Shown: in pieces, positions 8,230 to 42,526 of the stretch
How positions within the stretch are numbered: the first letter of the stretch is position 1
How the letters are laid out: the number at the start of each line of letters is the position of its first letter
Assembly: GCA_035388405.1 (NCBI GenBank)
Contig: DAOOPV010000007.1
Location: forward strand, 63-64,062
DNA: 64,000 bases
Source of the DNA: Anaerolineaceae bacterium
GTDB lineage: Bacteria; Chloroflexota; Anaerolineae; Anaerolineales; Anaerolineaceae
Direction: 5' to 3'
Notes under the pieces: generated by a model
Databases searched by the model: none
The model's input: only the letters and a program-made list of their open reading frames with translations
Told to the model about the DNA's origin: nothing
Translations under genes and position numbers: made by a program

Positions 8230-8315
8230 TCTCTTCTCCAAAAAAGACAAATACGTTCTAATGTGCAAGCATTTAGCTCCTGTTAGAGGCCGCAGATCTG
8301 ACCGACAGCTTCTCG

Positions 8316-14959: not shown

Positions 14960-16165
14960 CTATTTGCCCAAATTCAGCAGGTAGAAATCACGTGCTTCGA
15001 GCATGTGATCGTAGGCGTATTGTTCAGCAATGAACCAGGTCATCTCGAACATTTCGTCCAATGGTTTCTGTCCCTCAGGAACCTCGTAGGTTGAATCGGG
15101 GAAGTAGGTGCCGAACTTGGCCCATGGGTCACGACCATCAGGACTGGTGACAAACTTGACCCAAAGCTTGGCGGCGTTTGGATGCGGTGCCTGGTTGATG
15201 ATACCGACGTAGCTCTGGCTCTGGACACCCAGCTTTGGCTGGATACCCCAGCAGGGTTCAAACGCCAGGATGCCTTCCTGTACATCAGCCATGTTGGAAT
15301 AGGAGGTAAGAGCCATGTAGCTCTCGGTCATTCCAGGGGTCGCGAAGGCGGAATCGACTTCATCACCACCGGGTTGAGGGATGGGGCCGTTCTGCGCGAA
15401 GCGCTTGAGCCACAACCAACCAGCATCAGGGGTATCTGCGTCCAAAACAGGCTCGCTGCCGTAGAGGTCGACATAGGCTTGTTTGACTTCGTCAGCATGG
15501 AATGCAAAGGTGATCAACTTGCTTAAAGTTGAGGCATCATTCAGAGGATCTTCAATGAAGAATTTCCCTTTCCATTCCGGCTGGGTGAGTTCCCAGATGT
15601 TAGTAATGGGGCAGGTGTCGTTCAGTTCAGAGTTGTAAGCAAACACGCTGGTTCCAAAGCGGCTCATCAGCAAGGGTTGGGTGTACTGTTCTGGCGTGTA
15701 AGCGGCTGTGGAATCGGGTACGAAGCGCCAAACGTAATTCTTGGGCAGCACTTGCCCAACCAGGTCTGCACCACCACTGCTAAACCAGACATCACCGGTG
15801 AATGCTCCAGCTTTTTGTTCCTCGAGGGTTTTCATGAGGACATCGTCACCGCCAAGGTCATAAGCTTGCACGTTGATCTCGGGATAGAGTTCCATAAAGG
15901 CTTCAGCAGCCTTTTCGACCTTGGACGAGTTGGCATAGACCAAAACTGTTCCTTCTTTTTTGGCTGCTTCCTCGATCGCCGCCCAATCCTGGGTGCCGGT
16001 TTCGTACTCGCCCAGCAGATTGGCCTTCAACCATTCCTGTTGGAGGGTGAGGGTTTCGGGCTGAGCGACTGGTTCAGTTGCGGCGGGTTCTGCTGGCTTT
16101 GCGCCGCAGGACACGAGCATTGTGATCACGAGGATCAATGCTGCTAATCTAAAAAATGCTTTCAT
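14960..16165 (-). CDS. ABC transporter substrate-binding lipoprotein (family-1 solute-binding protein)
   Basis: The preferred start is ATG 16165 (MKAFFRLAALILVITMLVSCGAKP, a signal peptide plus lipobox Cys), preceded by AGAAGGAGAAAG. It sits next to the ATPase and permease genes. Confidence 0.8.
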   Translation of the reverse strand: MKAFFRLAALILVITMLVSCGAKPAEPAATEPVAQPETLTLQQEWLKANLLGEYETGTQDWAAIEEAAKKEGTVLVYANSSKVEKAAEAFMELYPEINVQAYDLGGDDVLMKTLEEQKAGAFTGDVWFSSGGADLVGQVLPKNYVWRFVPDSTAAYTPEQYTQPLLMSRFGTSVFAYNSELNDTCPITNIWELTQPEWKGKFFIEDPLNDASTLSKLITFAFHADEVKQAYVDLYGSEPVLDADTPDAGWLWLKRFAQNGPIPQPGGDEVDSAFATPGMTESYMALTSYSNMADVQEGILAFEPCWGIQPKLGVQSQSYVGIINQAPHPNAAKLWVKFVTSPDGRDPWAKFGTYFPDSTYEVPEGQKPLDEMFEMTWFIAEQYAYDHMLEARDFYLLNLGK

Positions 16166-16290: not shown

Positions 16291-17373
16291 CTACGCAGTA
16301 ATAAGTGCTTCAGTTTCTTTATCGTAAAGGTTGATCGCATCTTCCTTGAACGACAACCAGATGGGTTGATCCATCTGGATCTTGCTGACACCCATTTCTT
16401 TAATGGTCAGCTCGGTGTCACCCTTGCGGGCAATAATGGTCGTATCGGCGCCTGAGGGTAAAACTGAATAGGCGGCGAATTCGACAGCTCCGTCAGTCGG
16501 TTCATTGTGGATGATGATATCTTCAGGACGTAAACCCACCACGACATCACCCGTTTTGTTGTAAGTTTTCACCGGGATGTTGAACTTACCGATGTCCACC
16601 AGGTTCTGACCCGACACCCATCCGGGCATCAGATTGACCTTTGGATTGCCAATGAAATCGGCCACAAAAAGATTGGCTGGATAGTGGTAGACCATATCGG
16701 GGGTATCCAATTGTTGGATGACGCCCAGTTTCATTACCGCAATTTTGGTGGACATGGTCATGGCTTCGACCTGATCGTGGGTCACATAAACCGTTGTGGC
16801 ATCAGAAATGTGGTGCAGACGTTTCAACTCAGTGCGCATATCCATTCTCAGGCGGGCGTCCAGGTTAGAGAGGGGTTCGTCCATCAGGAAGACTTTTGGT
16901 CGGTATGCAAGCATCCGAGCCAGGGCAATACGCTGCTGCTGACCACCACTCATTTCGCGAGGATAGCGGTCTTCGTAACCCGCCATCTGCACTTCTTCAA
17001 GGGATTCTTTGACCCGGATATCCATGTCTGCTTTCGACATTTTCTGAATTTCAAGCGCGAAAGTGATGTTCTTATAGACGTTCATGTGCGGCCATAAAGC
17101 ATAGTTCTGGAAAACCAATCCCAAATCCCGCTGCCCAGAGGGGAGTGATATGCCCTTTGAGCGTGAATAGACCAGCTTGTCGCCAATGATGATCTCTCCA
17201 TCATCCGGGTCTTCCAAACCTGAGATACATCGCAAAAGGGTGGTTTTACCGCAGCCGGAAGGTCCCAGGAGTGTCAGGAACGAACCGGGCTCGATGGTCA
17301 CGCTTACGTTATTGACCGCAACGACATCCCCGAATTTTTTTGTTAAGTTCTTAATAATAATTGGTGTATCCAT
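16291..17373 (-). CDS. ABC transporter ATP-binding protein (MalK/PotA/UgpC-like with C-terminal regulatory domain)
   Basis: Walker A GPSGCGKTT, signature MSGGQQQR, Walker B VFLMDEPLS. 360 aa. Confidence 0.9.
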   Translation of the reverse strand: MDTPIIIKNLTKKFGDVVAVNNVSVTIEPGSFLTLLGPSGCGKTTLLRCISGLEDPDDGEIIIGDKLVYSRSKGISLPSGQRDLGLVFQNYALWPHMNVYKNITFALEIQKMSKADMDIRVKESLEEVQMAGYEDRYPREMSGGQQQRIALARMLAYRPKVFLMDEPLSNLDARLRMDMRTELKRLHHISDATTVYVTHDQVEAMTMSTKIAVMKLGVIQQLDTPDMVYHYPANLFVADFIGNPKVNLMPGWVSGQNLVDIGKFNIPVKTYNKTGDVVVGLRPEDIIIHNEPTDGAVEFAAYSVLPSGADTTIIARKGDTELTIKEMGVSKIQMDQPIWLSFKEDAINLYDKETEALITA

Positions 17374-17385: not shown

Positions 17386-19221
17386 TTATAATCCCAAGCC
17401 TTTTTTCAGGCTTCCGCCGCGGAACCGGCTGATAAGAAAGTTGCCCGACAGGACAAGCACGATCAGAATGATGATGACAGCGTTAGCTTGTTGTTCATTT
17501 CCATTTTCGATGTACCGCATGGTCTGGCTTGCCAGCACAGCGGTAGTGGGGGTGACCAGCAGAATGATCAGCGAAAGCTCGCGCATGGTCGTGATGAAGG
17601 TCATCAGGAACCCGGAGACAAAACCGGTGCTGGTCAGCGGGAAGATAATGCGCTTAAACCGTCTCCATGGTCCTGCACCCGCGATGGCTGCGGCTTCTTC
17701 CAATTCTTTACCGACCTGCAGCATAGCTGAGACGCCACTGCGGGCAGAATATGGAATATGCTTAGCGACCGATACCACCACCAGCAAGGCAAAGGTGCCA
17801 TAGAGGGCAGGGATCGGTCCCACCGATTTTGTGAACATCGAAATATAAACCGCGCCGAAAGCAATACCCGGAATTACGTAAGGAATAAATGCTATTTGCT
17901 CGACGATTTTTGAGAGCTTTGTTCCACGACCTTTGACGATGGCATAGCCAAGGATCACCCCCAACAAGGCCGTGAATGTTGCGGTAAAGAAGGATAGTCG
18001 GATCGAATTCCAGGCTGCCAGGTAAATCTTCCTGTTCAGCAAGACACCCGGCTCACCACTGTTGATGTTCATGACGCCTTTGCCGATCCAGTGCTCCAGA
18101 GTAAGGTTGCTGAAACTGTAATCACCCGTCCTGAGCATGAAAGTGCTGTAGATCAGCAGGGAGAGGGGTAACACTGCAATGAAGAATTGGAAGATTACCA
18201 CCAAGGTAGTGAGCAGACCTTTGAAGTTGCGAAGTTTCTGCTTTTGCGCCATAAAACCGCGTCCGCCGATGGTTTCGTAACTCTTCCTGGTGCCCACCAG
18301 TTTTTGATTGATCATGATAGTCGTCATGGCAAACAGGATCAAAACGATCGCCAGGACAAAACCATCTCCATAATTTCCAATACCCGTATTTGACCTGAGC
18401 ATGGTTGAGAGCGTGTAGTATTGCACCGGAACGCCCAAGACGTTCGGTCCACCGAAAGTACCCATGGTCTTTGAGAAGGTCATGATGAAGCCAGAGGCAA
18501 TCGCGGGAATGACCAGGGGGAAAGTGATCTTCCTCATGATGCGCCAGCGACCTGCGCCAGCTAATTCGCCTGCTTCCTCAAGAGAAGAGTCGATGGAGAG
18601 CAAAGCTGCTGAGACAAACAGGAAAAAGAAGGTGTAATAATGAAGAGCACTGCTGACGATGATTGGAACCGGACCGTATGCCAGCCAATCGGGTGTTGGG
18701 CTGTGTGTCAAAAACTCCAGCAATCCTGGAGTTCCACCAGATGTCTGGTTCTTGAAAAGCACGATCCAAGCCTGCGCGATTGTCCAGGAGGGCATGATGT
18801 AGGGAACTGTTGCCAGGGTGTTGATAATTCCTTTGCCTGGTACGTCGGTTCTGACCACCAGCCAAGCCATCAAACCGCCAATCACCAGGGCAAGACCTGT
18901 AGCACCAAGGGAGATGGTCAGCGAATGCAGGAGCGGCTCGTACGTCATGATCTCGCTGATTTTGCTGCTCAGCATCCGGACCCAGTGGTAAAACGTCAGG
19001 TCTCCGATTTCTGCTCCAGGAATGGCGCGAAGATCCATTTCCTGCACTGAGAAGGTGGTAATGATCATGCGGTACAGTGGAATAATAACCATGTAGACCA
19101 TCACAGCCAGCATGATCAAGGAAAGCACAACATGCGGGCTGCTCAGCCAATGGAAAAATCGGCGTAAGCGCGCATTCCAGTTTTGTCCGGATGATGGAAC
19201 TGTTTTTGATGCTACAGCCAT
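17386..19221 (-). CDS. ABC transporter permease, fused double-permease type
   Basis: 611 aa with two tandem 6-TM halves, as seen in FbpB/ThiP-like permeases. It is adjacent to the ATPase gene. Confidence 0.8.
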   Translation of the reverse strand: MAVASKTVPSSGQNWNARLRRFFHWLSSPHVVLSLIMLAVMVYMVIIPLYRMIITTFSVQEMDLRAIPGAEIGDLTFYHWVRMLSSKISEIMTYEPLLHSLTISLGATGLALVIGGLMAWLVVRTDVPGKGIINTLATVPYIMPSWTIAQAWIVLFKNQTSGGTPGLLEFLTHSPTPDWLAYGPVPIIVSSALHYYTFFFLFVSAALLSIDSSLEEAGELAGAGRWRIMRKITFPLVIPAIASGFIMTFSKTMGTFGGPNVLGVPVQYYTLSTMLRSNTGIGNYGDGFVLAIVLILFAMTTIMINQKLVGTRKSYETIGGRGFMAQKQKLRNFKGLLTTLVVIFQFFIAVLPLSLLIYSTFMLRTGDYSFSNLTLEHWIGKGVMNINSGEPGVLLNRKIYLAAWNSIRLSFFTATFTALLGVILGYAIVKGRGTKLSKIVEQIAFIPYVIPGIAFGAVYISMFTKSVGPIPALYGTFALLVVVSVAKHIPYSARSGVSAMLQVGKELEEAAAIAGAGPWRRFKRIIFPLTSTGFVSGFLMTFITTMRELSLIILLVTPTTAVLASQTMRYIENGNEQQANAVIIILIVLVLSGNFLISRFRGGSLKKGLGL

Positions 19222-19338: not shown

Positions 19339-20229
19339 TCACTCATCCGCGCAGGTGTTAAACGCCTTCAACTGATCCCGTAGATTGTCAAGCTTGTCAA
19401 GCAGCGTCATGGATTTTTCTTGTTCCATGCTTGCCAGGGATAACAGCAGCGCGTTGATGACTGTCATGGGAACAACCAAAGAATGGAATTCACCGATCGG
19501 ACCGCGTTTCGCTGACAAGACCACGTCCACCTTATCGCCAAGGATGGCTTCGAGCGTGTCGGTGAGCATAATGATGGTTGCGCCAACTTTGTTGGCGTAG
19601 TCAATGACCAATTTGAGAGCAGGGTTCTGATCGAAGAAGCAGATCACAAACAAAAGATCCTTTTCTTCCATCATCGTGAGGTATTCGAGAAACTCGCGAC
19701 CTGAGCTTGTAAGCGGAACAACTTCGCGTCCGAATCTGCGCAGGCGGAGCTCAAGGAGGTCTACCAATGAGACCGATGGACCGAGCCCAAAGACAAAAAC
19801 GCGGTCGTGTTCATGCAGAATCTCGACCGCGTTGTTTAATTCTTCGCGTTTGATGGAATCCAACGCCTGGGACAGAAAATCAATTTCTGTTGCTGTCAGG
19901 CGCTCAAAGATGTCGCCGCCGTCCCGGAGGTCGTTCAGCCTGCCGCGTAAGCGGGCGGAGTGAGTTACCCGCCGGCGGAAATTGTCTTGCAGGACCGCGC
20001 GCATAGTCGGGTAACTGCTGAAGCCAAGACTGCGGGCAAAGCGTACCAGGGTCGCCTCGCTCAGATCCAGCCGACTGGCAATTTCGCCAGCAGAAAGGAA
20101 CGCGGACTCCTCCTGGTTTTTGCGAAGGAAGTTGGCAATACGCTTTTCGCTCTTGGTCAGGTTATTGAAATGATCAGTCAGAACCTGGCTGAAGTCAATT
20201 TTTGGGGGAGATTTTGAAGGGCTGTTCAT
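19339..20229 (-). CDS. MurR/RpiR-family transcriptional regulator (HTH plus SIS domain)
   Basis: RIANFLRKNQEESAFLSAGEIASRLDLSEATLVRFARSLGFSSY is the HTH_6 region, and the C-terminus is SIS-like. The preferred start is ATG 20229 (MNSPSKS). Confidence 0.8.
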   Translation of the reverse strand: MNSPSKSPPKIDFSQVLTDHFNNLTKSEKRIANFLRKNQEESAFLSAGEIASRLDLSEATLVRFARSLGFSSYPTMRAVLQDNFRRRVTHSARLRGRLNDLRDGGDIFERLTATEIDFLSQALDSIKREELNNAVEILHEHDRVFVFGLGPSVSLVDLLELRLRRFGREVVPLTSSGREFLEYLTMMEEKDLLFVICFFDQNPALKLVIDYANKVGATIIMLTDTLEAILGDKVDVVLSAKRGPIGEFHSLVVPMTVINALLLSLASMEQEKSMTLLDKLDNLRDQLKAFNTCADE

Positions 20230-20307
20230 AACACCTCGGTGCAGATCCTTGATCAAAAAAAGGGACAACAATATCTGTGTTCGTGAAATACCACTTACAT
20301 TTGAAAC

Positions 20308-20336
20308 AGTATAGTGCAATTGAATAAAAATTGCAA
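20308..20336 (-). promoter_or_regulatory. Sigma70-like promoter candidate for the RpiR gene (TTGCAA-17 nt-TATACT on the minus strand)
   Basis: The minus strand reads ttgcaa tttttattcaattgcac tatact. This puts the -35 at 20331-20336 and the -10 at 20308-20313. The short inverted repeat tgcaat..attgca overlaps it. Confidence 0.4.
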
Positions 20337-20355: not shown

Positions 20356-21579
20356 TTAATTTTCGTTGCTCGTTACTGTCAGAAGTGGCTGTATCCCAGG
20401 AGTGGCCCAAATCTCGACCCGTGAAGTGTCCACCACCAGTTCGCAAAGCTCCATTTGCGGCTTATAGACCTGTTCGGCCATCAGGAATTGCTCCCGGAAA
20501 TAGCGATTCAAGAAGTAATACAGTTCATACTTCTTTCGAAAGTCCATATCGCGCCGCCATTTGCGCTTCAGGCGCACGGCATCATCGGTGATGTACATCA
20601 CCTTTATTCCGGTCAAAGCCGCGATTTCAGGCAGGAGGAATGGGAAGTTCCCTTCCATGAAGATGATGTCAGCGGGTTCAATGCGCATAGTATCCCGCCC
20701 CGGTTTGAGCTTTCCATCGAGAGCATGGCTTGAGGTTGCGGAAATAAAGTCATATTGAGGTGTCATCGCGGCTCTACCAGCTCGCAGATCCTCAAGTGCT
20801 CGTGTCAGCATCTCAAAGTGCAGGGCTTCCTGGCCAAGCGAGTCAATCCCATGCGCTTCCCGATAATCCCGATCCGTCAGAAAGTGGTCAATCTCGAGAC
20901 CCGAGATACTCTTGCCGGTGCTTTGAAAGGCTTGCTGCAGCCGTTCGACGATTTCGGTCTTGCCCGCCGCAGTCTGACCAGCAATGGCGATCAAGATGGG
21001 GGTGCCCATCTTTTCTACCAACGAGTGAACAATCCTGATGAAGGCCTCATCCACTTCCTCGTTTGCCTTCTTGAAGTCTTTGTAGCCAACGGCAGGCAGG
21101 TTTTGGAGGTCGTTCTGCAGGCGTTCAAATGCCAGGAAAGGTTTTCCGCCAAGATGCGCGATGATGTTTTCAGTGTAATATTCTGACCGGTGGATGAAGT
21201 AGAACCCACGCGGATCAAAGGTAAAGTGTTTTTCCACCCAATCCGTTGGGTAGTCGCCAGTAGTCAGACCTACAAAGAGCATCCGCAACAGCGAGAGGAT
21301 TTGGGGGTCCATGGTTGGGCGATTATCCAGTTTGGGTTTGAGTTGAATACCAGAATAAAAGGCAGCGCTGTTGACCATCTGCTCAATTTCATCCTTGCTC
21401 TTCAACTCCACTGATTGCCAACCCGGTTTCGGGGTGATGTTCTCGAGGCAATAGCGAAACTCGAACAACTCAAGGCCGTTTAGCGCCGGGCAGAGAGTAA
21501 CCATCTTTTCAAAAAGCTTTTCCGAAAAGAGATCGTTGTTTTGGAGGAGGGGGTTCGGCATATCTTTCACTTCTTCCAT
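20356..21579 (-). CDS. PRK/uridine-kinase-family P-loop kinase with about 190-aa N-terminal domain of unknown function
   Basis: 407 aa. Walker A is GQTAAGKT. The C-terminal half has the uridine kinase/phosphoribulokinase-like layout (IIFMEGNFPF...RLKRKWRRD). It is a paralogue of 22826-24004. Confidence 0.7.
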   Translation of the reverse strand: MEEVKDMPNPLLQNNDLFSEKLFEKMVTLCPALNGLELFEFRYCLENITPKPGWQSVELKSKDEIEQMVNSAAFYSGIQLKPKLDNRPTMDPQILSLLRMLFVGLTTGDYPTDWVEKHFTFDPRGFYFIHRSEYYTENIIAHLGGKPFLAFERLQNDLQNLPAVGYKDFKKANEEVDEAFIRIVHSLVEKMGTPILIAIAGQTAAGKTEIVERLQQAFQSTGKSISGLEIDHFLTDRDYREAHGIDSLGQEALHFEMLTRALEDLRAGRAAMTPQYDFISATSSHALDGKLKPGRDTMRIEPADIIFMEGNFPFLLPEIAALTGIKVMYITDDAVRLKRKWRRDMDFRKKYELYYFLNRYFREQFLMAEQVYKPQMELCELVVDTSRVEIWATPGIQPLLTVTSNEN

Positions 21580-21582
21580 TTA

Positions 21583-22788
21583 TTACGCTCCGTATTTGGA
21601 CACTCTTCCGGCATTTGCCAGCGCGATCGGCATGACGTGGTAAGCGGGGATCTGCCCAAGGTTTCCTTGGGCGCAGTTGGTTTCCCCAAATTCTGTGAAT
21701 TTGTCCGCGCGAACGTACTTCGCGTACATGAGCAGCGGCACTGGATGCCAGCTGTGAGATTTGAGCACCGCCGGGGAGGAATGGTCGCCCCCGATGATCA
21801 CCACGTCCGGGTTCAATGCCATCAAGCGGGGCAGTTGGGCATCAAACTCTTCGATGGCTTTTACTTTTGCGTCGAAATCTCCGATTTCTCCATAAGTATC
21901 TGTCTTTTTGAAGTGCAGGTAGAAAAAATCATATTCTGACCAATGCTTTTCAAGGCAGTCAAATTCATCGCTGAGGTCTGAGCCGTTCACCGGGAGCACG
22001 TTCATGCCCACCAACCTTGCCACTCCGCGGTACATGCCGTTAACAGCGATAGCCGCGGCATTTAATTTAAAGATGTCCGGATATTTGGGCATCGTGGGGA
22101 ATTTGGCAAAGCCGCGCAGCAGGATCATGTTGGCGGGGGCTTCGTTTTTGAGAACCACTTCTGCCTGTTCCAGGAATGCGTTGACAAGCGCTGCGGTCCG
22201 CACCGAGCTTTCATCCAACGCCTGAACCTTTAGAGGCGCAGCGCCAGTGACCAATGGGTCAGAGTCCGTCAGCGAGGTCCCCAAGCCTGGTGCCCGCAAT
22301 ACGAGCACAAAACGGTGCTCCTTGACAACTTCCACGAACACTTCCGCGCCGTCCAACTTGATGGTTCGCAGTTTTTGGACGAGCCGTTCACTGTCACAAG
22401 TAGGCAACCTGCCAGCACGGCGGTCCACCAGGAGCCCATTTTCGTCAACGACGCAGAAGTTACCCCTGGCTGCCACATCGTCCGGACCAAGCTCAAAATC
22501 CACGCCCAGGGCTTCCAAAGCCCCTCGTCCTATTTGATATTCCAGGGGATTAAAGCCAAAGATCGAGAGGTGACCGGGACCACTGCCGACCGTAATGCCA
22601 GGACCGGCGGGGATGGTCATCCCCAGGGCTGATTTTTGCGCCAAGGCGTCCATGTTAGGTTTGCAGGCTGTTTCGAGTTCGGTTTTGCCGCCCTCTTCGC
22701 GTGGGAGCCCGCCCAAACCATCCATGATCAACAGCACAATCTTTGTGTCTGCTTCAACGATCTGCCCACGGAAGAATTCATCGAACAT
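21583..22788 (-). CDS. Archaeal-type cofactor-independent phosphoglycerate mutase family protein (ApgM-like, alkaline-phosphatase superfamily)
   Basis: KIVLLIMDGLGG...GSGPGHLSIFG...VVIGGDHSSP...SHSWHPVP is the ApgM/COG3635 pattern. The preferred start is ATG 22788 (MFDEFF). The track start at 22899 would overlap the upstream gene. Confidence 0.75.
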   Translation of the reverse strand: MFDEFFRGQIVEADTKIVLLIMDGLGGLPREEGGKTELETACKPNMDALAQKSALGMTIPAGPGITVGSGPGHLSIFGFNPLEYQIGRGALEALGVDFELGPDDVAARGNFCVVDENGLLVDRRAGRLPTCDSERLVQKLRTIKLDGAEVFVEVVKEHRFVLVLRAPGLGTSLTDSDPLVTGAAPLKVQALDESSVRTAALVNAFLEQAEVVLKNEAPANMILLRGFAKFPTMPKYPDIFKLNAAAIAVNGMYRGVARLVGMNVLPVNGSDLSDEFDCLEKHWSEYDFFYLHFKKTDTYGEIGDFDAKVKAIEEFDAQLPRLMALNPDVVIIGGDHSSPAVLKSHSWHPVPLLMYAKYVRADKFTEFGETNCAQGNLGQIPAYHVMPIALANAGRVSKYGA

Positions 22789-22825
22789 GGCGTGCCTCTT
22801 CTCTCTTGTTTTCTCTATCCATGCA

Positions 22826-24004
22826 TCAATCTGCCAACCGGGCTTGCAAGTCTGGATGGAGCCACAAATGCGCGTTGCTGGTATCCACGATGATGTCACA
22901 ACACTGCATCATGGGTTGGTAGATTTCCTGATTTCGCTGAAACTGGGTTCGAAAATAGCGGTTCGCCAGGTAGTGCGGATCATATTTCTTGCGGAAGTCC
23001 ACGTCCCGCTTCCACTTCCGTTTCAGTCGGCTGGGGTCATCGGCAAAGTAGACAATCTTCAGATTGATCAACCTGGCGATTTCGGGAATGTGGAACGGGA
23101 AGTTGCCTTCCAGGATGATGATGTCAGCTGGCTGGATGGTTTGGGTAGACTGACCCGGGCGAAGGAGACCATCCAAATCGTGGCTGGAGGTCGCCTGGAT
23201 GAAATCATAACGGGGGATAACCGCCGCTTCGCCGCGCAGAAGCGCGTTGATTGCTTCAATGAAGAGGGGATAATGAATGACGGCTGCATCCATCGGTCGC
23301 CCATCGCGAAAAATGCGATCCTTGTAGAAGTTATCCATCTCCACTGAGGTGCAAGAAAAACCGGATTCTTTTAAAGACTGTAATAATCGGGCGGTGATTT
23401 CAGATTTGCCTGAGGCAGTTGGTCCGACGATCGTCAGCAACAGCGGTGTGCTGCTGGAAGATATCAGAGATTGAACAACCCGGATGAATGTTTGGTCTGT
23501 TTCCTGATTCGCCTTGGCAAATTCTTTGTAGCCAACCTCGAACTTGTTTTTCAGGAGTGCTTGCCTTGCTTCAAAGCTTTTGTATGGCGCGCTGCCAAAG
23601 CGCTGGCGAATTGTGGGGGTGAGGTAAGCGGTGCGGACAAAAAATACGAAAGCACGCACGTCAAAGTAAAAGTGCTGATCCACCCATTGGATCGGGTAGA
23701 GTCCCTCAACCAGGCCAACAAAAAGCTCCCTGGTCAGGGACACGATCATGTTATCGAGGATGATCTGGTCGTTATGTTTTGGTTTTAGTTGGATGTTGGC
23801 GAAGAATTCCGGGGTGGCAATTCTTTCCAGCAGGGTTTCGATCGATTCTGGCTGAACGCTTGCCCAGCCTTCTGCAGGTTGGAGGTTCTTCAAGGCGTAT
23901 TGGAACTCGTATAACTCCAGTTCGGCAACACCAGGATTAATCTGCTGAAGCTTCACAAACAAGTCAGTCGTAAATTGTTTAGGATCAACCAAGTTCGCAG
24001 GCAT
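22826..24004 (-). CDS. PRK/uridine-kinase-family P-loop kinase, paralogue 2
   Basis: 392 aa. Walker A is GPTASGKS. Its N-terminal domain (ELELYEFQYALKNLQPAEGW...IQLKPKHND) parallels that of the 407-aa paralogue (GLELFEFRYCLENITPKPGW...IQLKPKLDN). Confidence 0.7.
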   Translation of the reverse strand: MPANLVDPKQFTTDLFVKLQQINPGVAELELYEFQYALKNLQPAEGWASVQPESIETLLERIATPEFFANIQLKPKHNDQIILDNMIVSLTRELFVGLVEGLYPIQWVDQHFYFDVRAFVFFVRTAYLTPTIRQRFGSAPYKSFEARQALLKNKFEVGYKEFAKANQETDQTFIRVVQSLISSSSTPLLLTIVGPTASGKSEITARLLQSLKESGFSCTSVEMDNFYKDRIFRDGRPMDAAVIHYPLFIEAINALLRGEAAVIPRYDFIQATSSHDLDGLLRPGQSTQTIQPADIIILEGNFPFHIPEIARLINLKIVYFADDPSRLKRKWKRDVDFRKKYDPHYLANRYFRTQFQRNQEIYQPMMQCCDIIVDTSNAHLWLHPDLQARLAD

Positions 24005-24026
24005 TCGTTAACACCTTTACTCGTAG

Positions 24027-25604
24027 TTACCAGGGAGTACCCTGCCCCAGTACCATCGCTTCGTAGGCTTTTTTGATCTTGCCGTAATTACCATCCCGGT
24101 CCAGGGCGATCCCTCGTCCGACGGCGGTGACGATCGTCCCAAGTCCGATTTTGCGCATTTCACCCTCCAGCTTTTCCAGCAGGGCTGGTGCGCTGCCTGG
24201 CTCGGTGCTGCGTCCATCAAAGATCAGGTGCAGAAACGCGTTTGATAGACCTTTTTCTTTAGCCATTCGCAGGAGAGCCAGGGGGTAGTCGATTGAACCA
24301 TGTGAGCTTTTCTCGGTCAGGAGGCCGATCAGGTGCAGATTGCTCCCTTTGCGGAGGACGTTTTCGATCGTCTCGACGAAGACTTCATTTTTCGCAAACG
24401 AGCCGTCTTTAAGCGCCAGATCCAGGCGCACGTCATCTTGCAAAACAACCCGCCCCGCGCCAATGTTCATGTGACCCGCTTCCGAATTGCCAGGCTTGCC
24501 GGCTTGCAACCCAACCGCTTCACCGGAAGCTTGCAGATGAGCCAGTGGAAAATCCCGGCAGAGAGCATCCCAGGTGGGTGTGGTTGCGACAAAAATGGGA
24601 TTGTTTTCGTCCTGGCTGCCTTCCCCCCAACCATCGAGGATGATCAGCAGAACCTTGCGGTCCTTTCCCCAGTAGTGGGGTTTCACCAAGGCTGCACCCG
24701 TCATGGAAGGATGTGTTTCGACACCCAGTATGTCCAAAATGGTCGGGGTGAGGTCCCGCAGACTGCCATCTGAGAGTTGAATGTCACCCTTAGCCTGGGG
24801 GTCGATCACGATAAAGGGCACCAGGTTGGAAGTGTGTGCCACGTGCGGCTTGCCTTCAGCGGTAAGCAGCACTTCAAGGTTGCCGTGGTCGGCTGTGATC
24901 AGCGAAACATAACCCCCGGATTTGGCAACCTGCAAAACCCGGGCAAGGTGCTCATCCACAGCCTGGGCGCAAGCAATCTTCGCTTCGCTGTTACTGGTGT
25001 GCCCAATCACGTCACCGTTGGCAAAGTTGGTCACGATGCAGTCAATGCCTTCTCGCAGACCGCGAATGACTTCATCAGCCACAGCGGGCAGGCTGAGCTC
25101 CGGAACCTGGTCAAAGGGGATGCCTTTGGGTGAAGGGACACGCACATCCACTTCGCCGGGGTAAGGCTGATTGTTTCCGCCATTCAAAAAGAAGGTGACG
25201 TGAGCGAATTTTTCGGATTCCGAGCAGCGCATTTGCGTTTTGCCAGCCTTGCTCAGGAGTTCGCCGAGGGTGTGGTCGAGTTTTGCGGGCGCAAAAGCAA
25301 CCGGCAGGTCTTTGAATTTGTCGTGATACAAAGTGAGGATGACAAATTCGAGGTCCTGCAACCGAGTGCGTTCAAAATGCGCAAAATCGGTTTCAGTGAA
25401 GGCTTCGGTAAGCTCAATTTCCCTCTCGCCCCGGCGGCAGCAGAAAATGACCGCGTCACCGTCCTGAACCTTTGCGAAGGGCTGCCCCTCCGGATTCAGG
25501 CGCACGTGAGGCTCCATGGAATAATCGGTCTGTCCGCGCGCGTAAGCTTTGCGAACTGCTTCAGCGAGGAGAAAGCCGCCGTGTTTGACTTCACTCGTGT
25601 TCAT
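24027..25604 (-). CDS. Circularly permuted 2,3-bisphosphoglycerate-independent phosphoglycerate mutase (GpmI-family) homologue
   Basis: All iPGM signature blocks are present but reordered. NGDVIGH, TADHGN and the C-terminal MTGAALVKP lie at aa about 195-308. The canonical N-terminal blocks LLIILDGWG and GNSEAGHMNIGAGR lie at aa about 318-385. The protein ends at ...LDRDGNYGKIKKAYEAMVLGQGTPW, which is a mid-protein block in canonical enzymes. Confidence 0.8.
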   Translation of the reverse strand: MNTSEVKHGGFLLAEAVRKAYARGQTDYSMEPHVRLNPEGQPFAKVQDGDAVIFCCRRGEREIELTEAFTETDFAHFERTRLQDLEFVILTLYHDKFKDLPVAFAPAKLDHTLGELLSKAGKTQMRCSESEKFAHVTFFLNGGNNQPYPGEVDVRVPSPKGIPFDQVPELSLPAVADEVIRGLREGIDCIVTNFANGDVIGHTSNSEAKIACAQAVDEHLARVLQVAKSGGYVSLITADHGNLEVLLTAEGKPHVAHTSNLVPFIVIDPQAKGDIQLSDGSLRDLTPTILDILGVETHPSMTGAALVKPHYWGKDRKVLLIILDGWGEGSQDENNPIFVATTPTWDALCRDFPLAHLQASGEAVGLQAGKPGNSEAGHMNIGAGRVVLQDDVRLDLALKDGSFAKNEVFVETIENVLRKGSNLHLIGLLTEKSSHGSIDYPLALLRMAKEKGLSNAFLHLIFDGRSTEPGSAPALLEKLEGEMRKIGLGTIVTAVGRGIALDRDGNYGKIKKAYEAMVLGQGTPW

Positions 25605-25628: not shown

Positions 25629-26396
25629 CTATTTGTGTGCCTGAAATTTTTCATCAAGGACCACTCTCGGGCATGATGGGAAGATTTCAAGCAGATCTGT
25701 AAATTGATGAATGATCAGGTCAGGCCGGTTTTCATCCGTGATGGTTGATTCGGCTAATTCTTCCGGGCTGATGAGAATGATTGTCATCCCGAAGCCAGCT
25801 GCACGGGTTCCAGTGACATCGCGTTTCAGATTATCCCCAACATAGGCGCAGCGTGAAGGGTCTACCCCCGCGTTTTGGGCAGCGATGTGGTAAATGGCTG
25901 GGTCGGGTTTGCGAATTCCCAAGACGGAAGAAAGCGCAATAGATTTGAAGTAGGGGGTGAAGCCATCCGCTTCCATCCACTCAGGGATTTCGCTGGTGGT
26001 GATCAGGTTGCTGATGATGCCAAGCGAGTAACCCCGGTCAAAAAGGGTTTGCACCACTTCCTTGCCGTTTTCCACGACCACTCGCAGCCCCATCGACTGG
26101 CGATACTGGTAGGTCAATTCGGTGCCAAGCGGTCCGATGCGTTCTGCGGGAAAATCATAAGCCAGCCAACGCGTCCAAAGTTCGGATTCGGGTGCTTCGC
26201 GCATGGTATCAAAGGCCCACTTGCGATAAACCTTGTAGCGTTGGTCCAGCTTTTCGCAGAAAGCTACAGGGTCCTCGTCTGTTCCAACCAGATCCACAAT
26301 TCTCTGCCTGGCTCTGGCTTGGTGGTCGTCATTCTTCGTTAATATCCGCAGCGTGTTCCCAAGGTCGAGAAAAACCGCTTCAATTTCCTGGATCAT
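25629..26396 (-). CDS. HAD-like hydrolase (DxGNT motif I variant)
   Basis: 255 aa: VFLDLGNT, ISNLIT, GIRKPDP, YVGDNLKRDVTGTRAAG. Confidence 0.8.
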   Translation of the reverse strand: MIQEIEAVFLDLGNTLRILTKNDDHQARARQRIVDLVGTDEDPVAFCEKLDQRYKVYRKWAFDTMREAPESELWTRWLAYDFPAERIGPLGTELTYQYRQSMGLRVVVENGKEVVQTLFDRGYSLGIISNLITTSEIPEWMEADGFTPYFKSIALSSVLGIRKPDPAIYHIAAQNAGVDPSRCAYVGDNLKRDVTGTRAAGFGMTIILISPEELAESTITDENRPDLIIHQFTDLLEIFPSCPRVVLDEKFQAHK

Positions 26397-26427: not shown

Positions 26428-27159
26428 TTATGAACGCGGAGGGAATATATCAAGGAGCTGCTTTATTTCCTTAATAACATAATCAGGTTTGAGGTCAGTC
26501 GATTGCGGTTCTTTGGCTAAGGTGTCTGGTTCTTCAATGAGGACCATCATACCGAATCCAGCTGCCTGGGTTCCTTCGACGTCACGGATGGGGTTATCAC
26601 CAAGATAAGCGCATTTGGAGGGGTCTACGCCCATCACCCTGGCTGCCAGCAGGTAAATCGCTGGGTCGGGTTTGCGAATCCTGACCTTGGAGGAAAGGAT
26701 CACGGTCTTAAAATAGCCGGTCACGCCATCTGATATCATCCAGTCCGGGATTTCAGTTTCTGTGATTGTGTTGGCGATAATTCCCAGTTGATAGCCACGG
26801 CGGTGAAGTTCCGCGACAGTATCTTTGGCGTCCTCACGGGGAACGCGCCTGCCATCGCGATCACGCCACAGCCGGGTCAGGCGGCTCACGTTCGGCGCGA
26901 TGATCTCGATGGGGTAGTCTGGCAGGAGCCACTGTGTCCAGAGTTCCAATTCGGACGCATCGAGGAGCGATTTCTTAGCGAGACTGCGGTAGGCTTTCCA
27001 GTTTTTTTCCAACTTTTCGAAGAAAACTTCAGGAGTTTCAGTCGCGTTGACCAACGTCATCAGGTCATCTTTGGCTTGTTGTTGAAACTCGGGATCTTCT
27101 TTAACAATACGCAGTGTGTTTCCTACATCCAAGAAAATGGCTTCAATTTCAGGTGTCAT
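26428..27159 (-). CDS. HAD-like hydrolase (DxGNT motif I variant), paralogue
   Basis: 243 aa: IFLDVGNT, IANTIT, RIRKPDP, YLGDNPIRDVEGTQAAG. Confidence 0.8.
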   Translation of the reverse strand: MTPEIEAIFLDVGNTLRIVKEDPEFQQQAKDDLMTLVNATETPEVFFEKLEKNWKAYRSLAKKSLLDASELELWTQWLLPDYPIEIIAPNVSRLTRLWRDRDGRRVPREDAKDTVAELHRRGYQLGIIANTITETEIPDWMISDGVTGYFKTVILSSKVRIRKPDPAIYLLAARVMGVDPSKCAYLGDNPIRDVEGTQAAGFGMMVLIEEPDTLAKEPQSTDLKPDYVIKEIKQLLDIFPPRS

Positions 27160-27309: not shown

Positions 27310-27325
27310 ATGCACACGTGTGCAT
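27310..27325. promoter_or_regulatory. 16-bp perfect palindrome ATGCACACGTGTGCAT, candidate LacI-family operator (copy 1)
   Basis: Read directly. It is self-complementary, lies between the -10 candidate and the regulator's RBS, and recurs at 34551-34565. Confidence 0.65.
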
Positions 27326-27338
27326 AAGGAGAAACGTA

Positions 27339-28364
27339 GTGGCAATCACCATCAAGGACATTGCAAAAAGGGCAGGAGTTTCTCACTCGACGGTCTCCCG
27401 TGCCTTGCGAGTAAATCGCCTTGTGTCCAGTGAAACTGCCCGGCGTATCCACGACATCGCCCAGGAAATGGGCTATCGACCCAGCGCAGTGGCGCGCAGT
27501 CTCAAAACCAACCGCACCCAGGTTCTGGGCGTGATTGTCAGCAGTATTTCCGATCCTTTTTTTGGCGAGATCCTCAATGGGATCGAAGCGAGCGCGCAGG
27601 CTGGCGGTTATAGCCTGTTTATTGCGGCTTCCCAGCATGATCCAATTAAAGAACGGCAAATCGTTCAGACGATGATGGAGCAGCGTACCGAAGGGGTAAT
27701 TATTTGCTCATCTTCCTTCAGCCCTGAACACGGACGCCAGCTGCTTTCCTATGGATTTCCAGTTGTGGTGGTCAACCACCAGGGCAGCGAAAGTTTTAAC
27801 TATTCTATTTACCATGATGATATCGACGGCAGCTCGCAAATCACCCGGCATCTGATTTCGCTGGGACACAAAAGAATTGCCTATCTTGGTAACTCCCAAT
27901 CCGGCAGGACCACACAGGACCGGTTGCGGGGTTTCCTGGACGCCATGGCAGAAGCTCACTTGGAAGTGCCAGAGAATTACGTCCATCACGTGGAGGGCGG
28001 TGAACCCCTCCTGGGCGCTGAAAGCGTCCGATACTTCGCAAGACTGACTCCGAGACCCACCGCGATCATTTGTTTTAACGACATGCTGGCGATTGGTGTG
28101 CTCAAAGGCTGTGAACAGTCCGGTTTACGGGTTCCAGAAGACATTTCGGTGACCGGTTTCGACAACATAACCTACTCAGCGTTTACAACGCCTTCTCTGA
28201 CCACTTTTGATCAGCCAAAATTTTCCATCGGACAGGAAGCTGCTCAACTTCTATTGGATTTGCTCCAAGCCGAGGATGGAATTATCCCGGACATGCCAAA
28301 TGTGAAAGTGCTAAAAGGGAAGCTGTTGGTCAGAGGATCAACCGGAATTCCTGGTGAGGTTTAA
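27339..28364 (+). CDS. LacI-family transcriptional regulator
   Basis: HTH TIKDIAKRAGVSHSTVSRAL plus a periplasmic-binding-protein-like core. The preferred start is GTG 27339, preceded by AAGGAG with a 7-nt spacer. The ORF-track start is 27318. Confidence 0.85.
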   Translation: MAITIKDIAKRAGVSHSTVSRALRVNRLVSSETARRIHDIAQEMGYRPSAVARSLKTNRTQVLGVIVSSISDPFFGEILNGIEASAQAGGYSLFIAASQHDPIKERQIVQTMMEQRTEGVIICSSSFSPEHGRQLLSYGFPVVVVNHQGSESFNYSIYHDDIDGSSQITRHLISLGHKRIAYLGNSQSGRTTQDRLRGFLDAMAEAHLEVPENYVHHVEGGEPLLGAESVRYFARLTPRPTAIICFNDMLAIGVLKGCEQSGLRVPEDISVTGFDNITYSAFTTPSLTTFDQPKFSIGQEAAQLLLDLLQAEDGIIPDMPNVKVLKGKLLVRGSTGIPGEV

Positions 28365-28371
28365 TCCATTT

Positions 28372-29886
28372 ATGAACAATCCCTTTACCCTCAAATCAGA
28401 TCGTGATCTCTCCCTAATCCCACAATCTTTCGTGAGTTATCGAGGGTTGGAATTGGGCTTGACTTGCGAAGAGGGAACCAGGCAGTTGGTAATATTGGCT
28501 GCTAATGTGGACCCCCGACTCAAGCCATTTGAAGGCAAGCGTGCGGATTTTGCAGGAAAGACGCTTGTAGAGGGACCGCTTTCGTCTGCCAATGCGGCAG
28601 CCTTGAGGGATCTGTTGCCTTGGCTTCGCCCGCAAGTCCTGGGCTTGAAGACCTCGGTTGGTATGGGAGATCGTTTGGGGCTGGCAACACCCGGACACGT
28701 TCGCGCCGTCCGTGCCTGCAACGGTAATGTCGCTCCGATTTTTGCGCAGCAATCCATCAGGGAGTTGGCGCGGACCGGTCGAACACCGCAACAGGTCATG
28801 GATGATGCCATGTGGGGTGTCTTCCAGGAAAACTGGCAGGATGGTTTTGGTGCGGATGCGGACCACCTGAAGACTGAAACCGACATTGATGTCTGCCTGG
28901 GTGCTGGCTTCACCTTTTTTACGATCGACCCGGGCGCGTTCGTGAACGATCGAGCCGATAACCTTGGCTTGGAAGATCTCAGGCTCCTGGCTGTGGACCT
29001 GCCTTCTGCCTTGAGAGAGTCCGAGAGCGATCTGTTGAACTGCTCGCGCACCATTCAAGGACTCAAAATTCATTTTTCTGAAGCAATTTTGCTCAAGGCA
29101 ATGGTGAAATACGGGCACGCCATTTGGCATGTGGTCAAAATGTATGAGCACTTGCGGGCTGCCAGCGCTGGTAAATCCTTTGAATTGGAAGTTTCTGTTG
29201 ATGAAACAAAATGTCCAACCAGTCACGCTGAACATTACTATTTCGCCCATGAACTGAAGCGAATGGGGGTGCAGTGGGTTAGCCTGGCGCCCCGTTTTGT
29301 GGGTGAATTTGAGAAGGGTGTCGATTACATTGGGGACCTCGCCGCATTTGACGCGGATATCACCGGGCATGCAGCCATCGCCAAAGAGATGGGACCTTAC
29401 AAGATCAGCCTCCATTCGGGTTCGGATAAATTCAGCATCTATCCGGCTGCCGCACAACGCACAAAGGGCTTGGTGCACCTGAAAACCGCCGGAACCAGCT
29501 ACCTTGAGGCTATTCGCACCATCGCGGAAATTGACCCTCACTTTTTCAAGGAAATCTACGAATTCTGCCTGGGTCGTTACGAACAGGATAAACTCAGCTA
29601 TCACGTTTCTGCCCGCCTGGACCGTGCGCCTGCTGCCAGCGAGACAGGATCGCCCAACGATTATTTGGATAATTTTGACGCGCGTGAGATCCTGCACGTC
29701 ACATTTGGATCGGTGCTCAAGGAGAAATACCCCGAAGGCACCAGGCGTTTCTATGACCGCTTGATCGCGTTACTTGATCAACACCCTGAGGTCTATGCCA
29801 GCAATCTTGAGCGGCACTTCAAACGACACTTGGAGCCATTCTGCCAAGCTGTTAAAACACAACGAACAAAAAGAAGCAACGGGTGA
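28372..29886 (+). CDS. uxaE: Tagaturonate/fructuronate epimerase (UxaE family)
   Basis: The blocks GDRLGLATPGHVRA, IFAQQSIRE, GFGADADHLK, EVSVDET, ISLHSGSDKFSIYP, HLKTAGTSYLEA and HVTFGSVLK match my memory of the Thermotoga UxaE family. An alternative GTG start lies at 28354. The context (SDR reductase next) fits. Confidence 0.65.
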   Translation: MNNPFTLKSDRDLSLIPQSFVSYRGLELGLTCEEGTRQLVILAANVDPRLKPFEGKRADFAGKTLVEGPLSSANAAALRDLLPWLRPQVLGLKTSVGMGDRLGLATPGHVRAVRACNGNVAPIFAQQSIRELARTGRTPQQVMDDAMWGVFQENWQDGFGADADHLKTETDIDVCLGAGFTFFTIDPGAFVNDRADNLGLEDLRLLAVDLPSALRESESDLLNCSRTIQGLKIHFSEAILLKAMVKYGHAIWHVVKMYEHLRAASAGKSFELEVSVDETKCPTSHAEHYYFAHELKRMGVQWVSLAPRFVGEFEKGVDYIGDLAAFDADITGHAAIAKEMGPYKISLHSGSDKFSIYPAAAQRTKGLVHLKTAGTSYLEAIRTIAEIDPHFFKEIYEFCLGRYEQDKLSYHVSARLDRAPAASETGSPNDYLDNFDAREILHVTFGSVLKEKYPEGTRRFYDRLIALLDQHPEVYASNLERHFKRHLEPFCQAVKTQRTKRSNG

Positions 29887-29887
29887 A

Positions 29888-30721: not shown

Positions 30722-30725
30722 AGCA

Positions 30726-31979: not shown

Positions 31980-31999
31980 TCTTTAGCAAATAAGGAGAA

Positions 32000-33409: not shown

Positions 33410-33423
33410 AGAGGCGAGATTGC

Positions 33424-34512: not shown

Positions 34513-34550
34513 AGGATCCTGAAGTGTGACTGACTTTTATTTATTAACGA

Positions 34551-34565
34551 ATGCACACGTGTGCA
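34551..34565. promoter_or_regulatory. Second copy of the palindromic operator (ATGCACACGTGTGCA)
   Basis: The 14-bp core TGCACACGTGTGCA is identical to 27311-27324. It lies about 30 nt upstream of the 34594 start, between possible -35 (TTAACG) and -10 (TAATAG) hexamers. Confidence 0.65.
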
Positions 34566-34593
34566 ATAATAGAAAACAAGGAGATTAAAGAAA

Positions 34594-35637: not shown

Positions 35638-35694
35638 ACACCTGGAGCAATTATTCTCTCCCCTTCCAACATGGAGGGGAGATGAAGGAAAACA

Positions 35695-36711: not shown

Positions 36712-36747
36712 AATTAATCATATTGTTTATTACACGAGGAGCATGAA

Positions 36748-37872: not shown

Positions 37873-37902
37873 TTTTTTGGTAATTCGAAAAGGAGAAAAA
37901 AC

Positions 37903-39096: not shown

Positions 39097-39107
39097 ATTC
39101 ACACAAT

Positions 39108-39138
39108 GGAGGTCAGCTGGTCTCACCAGCTGACCTCC
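39108..39138 (+). other. Perfect 13-bp intercistronic stem-loop between the iolM-like and iolO-like genes
   Basis: ggaggtcagctgg / tctca / ccagctgacctcc, read directly. No U tract follows. The next gene's RBS (GGAG at 39144-39147) lies 6 nt downstream. Confidence 0.6.
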
Positions 39139-39154
39139 GAACTGGAGTGATTTG

Positions 39155-42474: not shown

Positions 42475-42526
42475 TCGCAATGGGAACGAGCAAACAGACT
42501 ACTGATAGGAATGGACGCAAGCGATT

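Follow-up and report, generated by a model that had tools for sequence, protein, structure and literature searches.

In the 64,000-nucleotide stretch of Anaerolineaceae DNA analysed here (contig DAOOPV010000007.1 of assembly GCA_035388405.1; hereafter the window, to which all coordinates refer), the minus strand carries between 20356 and 25604 a block of four tightly packed open reading frames (ORFs). In the order of transcription these encode a circularly permuted GpmI-type phosphotransferase/mutase of the alkaline-phosphatase superfamily (pGpmI; 24027-25604, 525 aa), a P-loop kinase (K1; 22826-24004, 392 aa), an ApgM-type mutase (21583-22788, 401 aa) and a second, paralogous kinase (K2; 20356-21579, 407 aa), with gaps of 22, 37 and 3 nt between consecutive genes, the start of K2 lying 3 nt past the ApgM stop. 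The ApgM ORF extends to 22899, and its likely start is the ATG at 22788, which gives 401 aa, a length shared with the homologues. The block is part of an operon of 17 genes on the same strand, running from 27159 down to about 6489 (~21 kb), which also encodes HAD-type hydrolases, an importer and phosphate-related proteins. An earlier note on this DNA had described the block as two pairs of a kinase and a mutase in a non-glycolytic context. The four ORFs were found where that note had put them, on the minus strand, the families were confirmed with both Pfam and NCBIfam, and no eno, pgk or gap genes lie around the block, in line with the context it had proposed. The four genes do adjoin, but the order within the proposed pairs is reversed: along transcription each kinase comes after its mutase.

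K1 and K2 are clear paralogues, as had been claimed (46% identity over 384 aligned residues, E = 3e-132), and share an architecture in which a new N-terminal domain (residues 1 to ~185) precedes a P-loop kinase of the PRK/uridine-kinase fold (~186-392 in K1). The kinase part belongs to PF00485, which is matched at residues 191-374 of K1 with 44.1 bits and at residues 196-383 of K2 with 66.9 bits (cutoff 22); the P-loop GxxxxGK[ST] is present, with G194, G199 and K200 invariant among 30 sequences. A phmmer search against the PDB matched the C-terminal 200 aa to the uridine-kinase/PRK fold (E ~2e-10), and a Foldseek search of the PDB with an AlphaFold2 (AF2) model of K1 (predicted local distance difference test score, pLDDT, of 92) returned UCK2/Udk with an E value of 3e-11 and a template modelling (TM) score to target of 0.7, the matches of the full-length model running through the kinase domain only. 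Udk enzymes use a catalytic Asp to activate the acceptor hydroxyl and have an Arg-rich lid. D224 of the kinases, in the motif EMDNFY, aligns with the catalytic Asp of UCK2 (motif SQDSFY) and is invariant in 30 diverse homologues, as is the Arg/Lys-rich lid RLKRKWKRD.

What K1 and K2 share with UCK2 (1UEJ) and Thermus Udk (3ASZ) is the fold of the C-terminal 200 aa together with its P-loop, the Arg/Lys-rich lid and a catalytic Asp that follows strand 2. However, udk is a single domain of ~210 aa with a housekeeping distribution, whereas K1 and K2 carry an extra 185-aa N-terminal domain and are largely confined to one bacterial class and one operon, and the sugar/nucleoside-binding F-D-H-P segment of UCK2 finds no alignment in either of them. 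They also miss the udk equivalog cutoffs of NF004018 and TIGR00235 by a wide margin (66.8 and 68.3 bits against 180; 59.7 and 56.5 bits against 220.3); over the udk and PRK equivalogs together their scores are 57-68 bits against cutoffs of 180-236. The earlier note had named ordinary uridine or pantothenate kinases of housekeeping distribution as the finding that would undo its proposal, and such an identity is refuted by these low scores, by the additional domain and by the restricted distribution described below.

The N-terminal domain of the kinases is rich in invariant aromatic and polar positions, E33, Y36, W47, D84, W107, D115, R117, R124, Y127, Q148 and N166 among them, and, as had been stated, is not recognised by any Pfam or NCBIfam model. 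A HMMER scan of 1.84 billion representative proteins with this domain gave 82 matches, all of them members or fragments of the same kinase family. When residues 1-185 were modelled separately with AF2 (pLDDT 83), the best Foldseek match in the PDB had an E value of 0.88 and a TM score below 0.2, so that no known fold was recognised among PDB structures. As far as could be checked, the kinases would thus constitute a new and narrow family with a novel domain.

The two mutases belong to different lineages, GpmI-type and ApgM-type, as the earlier note had recognised, and show no significant BLASTP similarity to each other. In pGpmI the matches to TIGR01307 (476.4 bits, cutoff 330.65) and NF003897 (400.7 bits, cutoff 862) both come as two reordered stretches: residues 15-307 correspond to residues 218-509 of the 2,3-bisphosphoglycerate-independent phosphoglycerate mutase (iPGM) of Geobacillus stearothermophilus (Bst; 1EJJ), and residues 316-523 to its residues 4-211. 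The old termini are bridged by ~8 residues, and the chain now opens near Bst residue 215, inside the transferase domain, so the domain order departs from that usual for GpmI (phosphatase N-part, inserted transferase, phosphatase C-part). More than 120 clusters span the full permuted length, and a literature search found no description of such a permuted iPGM.

The catalytic Ser374 of pGpmI is kept, and in 120 members of the family the metal site and nucleophile (D12, S62, D403, H407, D444, H445 and H462 in Bst numbering) are invariant, as are H123, R153, R185, R191, R261, R264 and K336. Seven of the eight residues of the phosphoglycerate pocket (H123, R153, D154, R185, R191, R261, R264 and K336) are therefore conserved and the pocket is not intact, since D154 is replaced by Ser in 120 of 120 members. 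F260 to Arg, N259 to Cys and Y186 to Gly are also invariant changes, Y187 has become Ile in 109 of the 120 (Leu or Val otherwise) and H125 is mostly Ser. The roles of these residues are those generally assigned to them in 1EJJ. Because D154S, F260R and Y186G are invariant and Y187I is found in 109 of 120 members, the pGpmI pocket is predicted to be roomier and more cationic than the phosphoglycerate site. Compared with the G. stearothermophilus enzyme, both domains are related at ~45-50% similarity and retain the Ser, all seven ligands of the metals and the Arg, Lys and His residues of the substrate site, but pGpmI is permuted, substituted in its pocket, and located among HAD genes (to one of which it is fused in one locus) in a non-glycolytic setting.

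The ApgM-type mutase passes the cutoffs of both NF003160 (566.8 bits against 468) and TIGR00306 (345.1 against 320), matches PF10143, and aligns over its full length with the archaeal structures 2ZKT and 3IDD (E 6e-67). Like these enzymes of Pyrococcus horikoshii (2ZKT) and Thermoplasma (3IDD), it has the nucleophile Ser and the motifs matching DG, DH and HS..P. In contrast to them, the metal-ligand His of their T-D-x-x-G-H motif is Glu in 119 of 119 members of the subfamily, the Ser loop is altered, GSD(T/S)AH having become GSGPGH (with Gly for the Asp beside the Ser), HSGDP has become HSWHP, again in 119 of 119, and a K2-type kinase lies downstream; the full metal-ligand set of the characterised archaeal ApgMs is therefore not present. 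In a check for ApgM as a widely distributed housekeeping orthologue, the 120 closest homologues listed share at least 65% identity and belong to the same cluster subfamily, and those of their contigs that were inspected carry this operon, including the contig of a homologue labelled Syntrophothermus. Since the closest homologues inspected lie in this operon, the name 'phosphoglycerate mutase' (PGM) attached to NF003160 says little about the substrate of ApgM. Both mutases look active but re-tooled, judging from these residue patterns.

The similarity of both enzymes to PGMs raises the alternative of a glycerate or aldonic-acid branch, in which the kinases would be non-orthologous glycerate/aldonate kinases, the mutases true PGMs leading into lower glycolysis (possibly in a housekeeping capacity) and the HADs phosphatases of the phosphoglycolate/phosphoglycerate type. 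It would agree with the iPGM contacts to phosphoglycerate kept in pGpmI (all except D154) and its pass of TIGR01307, with the pass of ApgM on NF003160 and TIGR00306, with the fixed and translationally tight ApgM-K2 pair (a 3-nt gap; adjacent in 57 of 60 cases, see below), and with the neighbouring operon, which processes sugar acids with a glycerate-like head group. The glycerate 3-kinase of plants and cyanobacteria is, moreover, also a PRK-like P-loop kinase. However, two non-homologous PGMs per operon would be redundant, the active-site changes are invariant throughout the families (D154S, F260R and Y186G in pGpmI; His to Glu in ApgM), pGpmI misses the stricter NF003897 cutoff (401 against 862), and eno, pgk and gap are missing. 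The six HAD domains, two TIM-barrel fusions, importer for presumably anionic ligands and PiT transporter encoded in the same operon would be superfluous for glycerate use. The extra 185-aa domain of the kinases suggests a larger substrate, and their closest structures are UCK, PRK and PanK, with glycerate 3-kinase not among the top 50. We consider such a branch unlikely.

A scan with the kinase over one genome per species (185,579 species) found 126 relatives, and 78 loci were kept. Nearly all are from metagenome-assembled genomes (MAGs) of Anaerolineae, the remainder including the isolate Levilinea saccharolytica KIBI-1, and the operon gene set recurs down to ~45-50% kinase identity. Neighbours within 10 kb of the kinase were counted in those 48 loci whose sequence spans 20 kb or more (long loci), of which 45 carry the operon. 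A K2-type kinase is present in all 48, the ABC importer ATPase in 47, pGpmI in 45, the substrate-binding protein (SBP) in 44, the tandem HAD-HAD protein also in 44, the RpiR regulator in 40 and ApgM in 38. Among 122 clustered kinases, 94 are K2-like, the universal type, and 26 K1-like, the latter lying almost always between pGpmI and ApgM. Excluding genes at contig edges, a K2-type kinase is directly downstream of ApgM in 57 of 60 cases and a HAD gene directly upstream of pGpmI in 61 of 64; the next gene after pGpmI is ApgM in 29 cases, K1 in 26 and K2 in eight.

These counts bear on the model of the earlier note, according to which kinase-plus-mutase modules were duplicated and two mutase lineages were recruited convergently for one chemistry, phosphorylation and then migration of the phosphate; in its full form each kinase would have its own mutase and each pair its own substrate. 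In its favour, the kinases are clear paralogues, no other single arrangement is as common as two kinases with one pGpmI and one ApgM (26 of the 48 long loci), and K1-type kinases come almost always right after pGpmI and K2-type ones right after ApgM. The link with the mutases, for which the note had asked for a neighbourhood search, is conserved, with a pGpmI gene no more than 10 kb from the kinase in 45 of the 48. The ratio of kinases to mutases varies (2:2, 1:2, 2:1 and 1:1). Ten loci have both mutases and a single kinase, L. saccharolytica among them, five have two kinases and pGpmI with no ApgM, and two have one kinase and pGpmI only; of the others, three carry one kinase and neither mutase, one has three kinases with one copy of each mutase, and one has a single kinase with two pGpmI and one ApgM. 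The two mutases precede both kinases in several loci. Furthermore, pGpmI has a HAD, not a kinase, as its constant partner, and only ApgM-K2 behaves as a fixed pair, so that neither the tandem duplicated modules nor the recruitment of one mutase per kinase is supported as a general rule. Two independent modules acting on separate substrates appear quite improbable to us, while the underlying chemistry of phosphorylation followed by phosphate migration is plausible.

Two further loci illustrate the association of pGpmI with HADs. In L085 the protein P0231 (L085:10001-12361) is a 786-aa fusion of a DxGxT HAD (motif DVGNT) with pGpmI, followed by a kinase, ApgM and another kinase. In a Christensenellaceae MAG (JAJDGU010000004.1; L084:6553-11575), outside the Chloroflexota, a LacI gene is accompanied by three DxGxT-type HADs (DIGAT, DVGDT and DLGNT) and a pGpmI that is 65% identical to that of the window, with no kinase, ApgM or ABC importer. 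This module could be the product of a horizontal transfer, or it could represent a core module; the LacI proteins of L084 and of the window share 32% identity, which is uninformative as to their orthology. Given the adjacency counts of 61/64 and 57/60, the HAD fusion and the kinase-less L084 module, the stable units are HAD-pGpmI and ApgM-K2, and between these two K1 has been inserted as an additional kinase restricted to one clade. Copy number in the kinase/mutase block evolves quickly. Tandem pairs of pGpmI were seen in some loci (L018, L078), and elsewhere (L024, L026, L039 and others) two to three kinases stand together after both mutases.

The HAD genes of the operon are all on the minus strand. 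Its first gene, HADa (26428-27159), encodes a HAD-IA hydrolase matching PF00702 and PF13419 with the motif I DVGNT and is conserved upstream of pGpmI, and HADb (25629-26396; Pfam and NCBIfam HAD matches, motif I DLGNT) is a paralogue directly upstream of pGpmI. Downstream of the kinases lie a tandem HAD-HAD protein (13424-14854), whose first domain has the motif I DMGGT and whose second has DAGDI, and two fusions of a HAD with an AP_endonuc_2 TIM barrel (11692-13401 with motif DVGGT, and 9946-11679 with DLGGT), the second identified by Pfam, NCBIfam and motif reading. In all six HAD domains the position two residues after the motif I Asp, that of the general acid/base, is Gly in place of the Asp of the canonical DxDx(T/V), within DxGxT in five of them and DAGDI in the sixth, and the same Gly is found in the three HADs of L084 and in the HAD part of the L085 fusion. 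In the alignment of the HAD-TIM family D11, G13 and T15 are invariant. Motifs II (S/T), III (K) and IV (GDxxxxD) of the HADs are intact, with S128, K162, G186 and D192 invariant in that alignment. The nearest structures are PH0459, PH1655, HDHD3, NANP and L-2-haloacid dehalogenases, and there are weak matches to pyrimidine 5'-nucleotidases. The HADs of the operon may thus not be conventional phosphatases.

The TIM domains of the two fusions score 79 and 70 bits on AP_endonuc_2 (Pfam cutoff 31). Their invariant His, Asp and Glu residues, as in the barrel of the fusion at 11692-13401, match at motif level the nine metal ligands of endonuclease IV (Endo IV). Five of the nine ligands in E. coli Nfo (H109, D179, H182, H216 and H231) fall directly on invariant residues, and the invariant counterparts of the other four are one to four positions off. 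There is a weak match to CbiR (28 bits against a cutoff of 105), which is a phosphodiesterase (PMC7733943), and a single-sequence search of the PDB returned weak matches only, a profile search doing somewhat better. The comparison with E. coli Nfo by hhalign was not significant, which leaves the correspondence with Endo IV at the level of motifs.

The importer and its surroundings lie between the kinases and the HAD-HAD gene, also on the minus strand. An RpiR/MurR-family regulator (19339-20319), with an HTH_6 and a phosphosugar-binding SIS domain, is followed by the ABC importer, which consists of a fused double permease of 611 aa (17386-19221; two BPD_transp_1 stretches, PhnU2-like), an ATPase (16291-17373; ABC_tran and OB_MalK) and a lipoprotein SBP of the FbpA/AfuA class (14960-16165, the ORF extending to 16273, with a likely start at M37 and an invariant lipobox Cys56). 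Few proteins of the operon are as well conserved as those for transport, with 63-96% identity across loci for the permease and at least 65% for the ATPase in cluster copies. A profile of the SBP matched FbpA-like proteins of the PDB with an E value of 4e-18, and AfuA (4R72) and P5PA (6WCE) with 1e-6 each; a single-sequence search of the PDB gave weak matches only. AfuA is the sugar-phosphate binder of the AfuABC importer of Actinobacillus/Citrobacter (PMC4546632), and P5PA is a binding protein for pyridoxal phosphate (PMC8427247). The system resembles AfuABC in combining a binding protein annotated as 'iron'-type with a fused double permease and one ATPase, but the similarity of the SBP to AfuA and P5PA is weak (E ~1e-6, confined to the N-terminal lobe) and FbpA-like iron binders score better. 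No Rfam match at the gathering threshold was found anywhere in the window, so neither a riboswitch nor another RNA hints at the ligand.

Towards the end of the operon, still on the minus strand, are genes for a PhoU_div (DUF47) protein (9332-9952, by Pfam) and a PiT phosphate transporter of the PHO4 family (8316-9320; PF01384, 288 bits), both of which recur at the cluster end in other loci; PhoU_div is the usual partner of PiT. They are followed by a divergent PfkB/ribokinase-like protein (7336-8268), with a weak NCBIfam match and syntenic in L029, L034, L044, L064, L076, L078 and L081, and by a metallo-beta-lactamase (MBL)-fold hydrolase (6489-7355; PF12706), syntenic in L076 and L081, which we assign tentatively to the operon as its last gene.

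Such an assortment could also serve general organophosphate or phosphate scavenging, with mixed phosphoesters and diesters from cell debris (nucleotides, glycerophosphodiesters, teichoic-acid fragments) as substrates. The alkaline-phosphatase-superfamily, HAD, TIM and MBL proteins would then be mainly esterases, and the kinases would salvage nucleosides or sugars. The many esterase-type domains beside PiT/PhoU_div, the weak resemblance of the HADs to pyrimidine 5'-nucleotidases, the proximity of the kinase fold to uridine-cytidine kinase, and the weak CbiR-type phosphodiesterase match together with the MBL-fold protein all point in this direction, and a scavenging life on cell debris is commonly attributed to Anaerolineae. 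On the other hand, regulation appears to be by RpiR and LacI, with no Pho-type system, the strong conservation of the permease and ATPase argues for one defined substrate, and the kinases score far under the udk cutoffs with the F-D-H-P segment of UCK2 unaligned. Scavenging would also leave the conserved link to an inositol operon, described next, without explanation, and we regard it as distinctly unlikely.

Divergently from the kinase/mutase operon, on the plus strand, a LacI-family regulator recognised by Pfam (27318-28364), which adjoins the operon in most loci, precedes a myo-inositol catabolic operon (28354-40000) encoding UxaE, a D-mannonate oxidoreductase (ManOR), a LarA-like epimerase, a 6-phosphogluconate dehydrogenase (6PGD), a PfkB kinase, an IolM-like alcohol dehydrogenase, IolG, IolN, IolM and IolO. 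Genes for a GlcD-like FAD-linked oxidase, EtfB and EtfA (40031-43729, plus strand) stand at its end; they may form an Etf-coupled 2-hydroxyacid dehydrogenase, and the same trio adjoins the cluster in L085. The equivalog cutoffs are exceeded by IolG (424 bits against 355), IolN (310 against 245), IolM (516 against 450), IolO (342 against 300) and ManOR (389 against 281), and UxaE scores 484 bits. In 32 of the 48 long loci, parts of this inositol operon stand right beside the kinase/mutase operon, with only ~6 kb upstream visible.

Rodionova et al. are said to have described in 2013 a Thermotoga-type myo-inositol pathway which proceeds through IolG, IolM, IolN and IolO and then UxaE. From the names of the NCBIfam models, we take the inositol operon of the window to encode this route from myo-inositol to tagaturonate; the kinase/mutase/HAD operon has, to our knowledge, no counterpart in it. 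IolG, IolM, IolN and IolO are all above their cutoffs, and UxaE and the mannonate oxidoreductase are encoded as well. In contrast to the Thermotoga pathway, however, the operon here lacks an inositol transporter, UxuA and the 2-keto-3-deoxy-6-phosphogluconate (KDPG) aldolase, and has instead a LarA-like Ni-pincer 'hexonate epimerase', a PfkB kinase and 6PGD. Because these three replace UxuA and KDPG aldolase, the gene content suggests an undescribed exit route from mannonate via gluconate and 6-phosphogluconate to ribulose-5-phosphate. The sole importer near this transporter-less operon is the ABC system of the kinase/mutase operon, the ligands of which are presumably anionic.

Taken together, the best explanation that we can offer for the four genes is that they serve as the core that repositions phosphates within a single large operon, catabolic or for salvage, which is specific to Anaerolineae, and we put the model as a whole forward with rather less than even confidence. 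The operon would import a phosphorylated compound, inositol phosphates being the likeliest, edit its phosphate positions, dephosphorylate it and feed the adjacent inositol pathway, a proposal that we hold to be somewhat less probable than its contrary. In this model the SBP of the FbpA/AfuA class and the fused-permease ABC importer would take up a polyanionic phosphorylated compound, for which inositol phosphates that are phytate-derived or phosphodiester-linked are candidates. In the cytoplasm, the six HAD domains of the DxGxT type and the two Endo IV-like TIM domains would remove phosphates. pGpmI and ApgM, through a phospho-Ser intermediate, would shift phosphates between adjacent hydroxyls, and the P-loop kinases would add a phosphate, turning awkward positional isomers into ones that the esterases accept. 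PiT/PhoU_div would take care of the released phosphate, and the dephosphorylated skeleton would enter the divergent IolG-IolM-IolN-IolO-UxaE pathway. What was observed is the gene content, the conservation of the operon, the novelty of the kinase family, the intact nucleophiles and re-tooled pockets of both mutases and the proximity to the inositol operon, whereas substrate, direction of the steps and division of labour are inferred.

The inositol-phosphate model would account for the many paralogous esterase domains, the more cationic mutase pocket and the SIS regulator, for an SBP of this class beside a phosphate transporter, and for the conserved adjacency to an iol operon that has no transporter. 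A partial analogy is offered by Pseudomonas, where the position of a phosphate is changed by a phosphatase and a kinase, the MurNAc-6-phosphate phosphatase MupP and the kinase AmgK, which act with MurU. The logic of a phosphatase and a kinase that shift a phosphate to a useful position is shared, as is the theme of RpiR-family regulation, but the families are unrelated, there are no mutases in that system, and the likeness is one of analogy only. In a bolder version of the model, the operon would be a new cytoplasmic phytate/inositol-phosphate route in which the mutases 'walk' phosphates around the cyclitol ring, the new kinases, with their novel domain binding the substrate, act on inositol phosphates and possibly run in reverse, passing crowded phosphates to ADP with a gain of ATP for a fermenter, and the HADs, in lieu of a general acid of their own, use a neighbouring phosphate of the substrate for catalysis; we consider this version very improbable.

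Several observations weigh against the inositol-phosphate model. Nothing in the operon is tied to inositol phosphates by experiment or by homology, and no phytase (HAP, beta-propeller, PTP-like or PAP), IMPase or IPK-family match was found in its 17 proteins with Pfam and NCBIfam. Phosphoglycerate-like substrates may still be handled by the mutases, because pGpmI retains the glycerate-binding residues of iPGM (all phosphoglycerate contacts except D154) and ApgM passes the NCBI 'PGM' equivalog cutoff of NF003160. The HADs do not have the acid/base at Asp+2, so their phosphatase activity is an assumption, and the correspondence of the TIM profile with E. coli Nfo is at the level of motifs only (hhalign E 0.24). 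ATP-using kinases would be without precedent in a dephosphorylation route. Finally, the inositol genes are missing from the ~6 kb visible upstream in 16 of the 48 long loci, and from the 10 kb around the L084 module of three HADs and pGpmI. The probability left over from this model and from the three alternatives discussed above belongs to functions beyond all of them.

Elsewhere in the window, the region at ~44000-60000 is low in GC content (0.40-0.48 against 0.52) and looks like an integrated mobilisable element. It encodes a large serine recombinase (50562-52331), a MobA/VirD2 relaxase (54182-55507), an ArdC/RadC polyvalent protein (57095-59947), an AadA-like nucleotidyltransferase (46430-47215) and a GNAT protein. 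A 976-aa ORF on the plus strand (67-2997) has no Pfam match at E<=1e-5. Just past the end of the operon, at 4001-6210, GC content dips to 0.40 around a 344-aa ORF on the minus strand (5176-6210) that matches neither Pfam nor NCBIfam.

Few fermenters are as abundant as Anaerolineae in anaerobic digesters and activated sludge or in sediments and soils, and the operon occurs in dozens of their species-level genomes. Its genes are all annotated generically as 'uridine kinase', 'phosphoglycerate mutase' and 'HAD hydrolase', and metabolic reconstructions very likely book both mutases as glycolytic PGMs and the kinases as enzymes of pyrimidine salvage, which is probably wrong. A literature search found no paper on the kinase family or on the operon, and nothing useful on phytate in combination with Anaerolineae. 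As far as we could check, the N-terminal domain of the kinases, a natural permutant of iPGM, the His-to-Glu subfamily of ApgM and the DxGxT clade of HADs are undescribed, the superfamilies themselves being known. The function of the operon is testable, since the cultured host L. saccharolytica KIBI-1 has its one-kinase version. If an inositol phosphate is indeed the substrate, the operon would represent a new bacterial route for the turnover of organic phosphorus, phytate included, and would matter for waste treatment and for the cycling of phosphorus.

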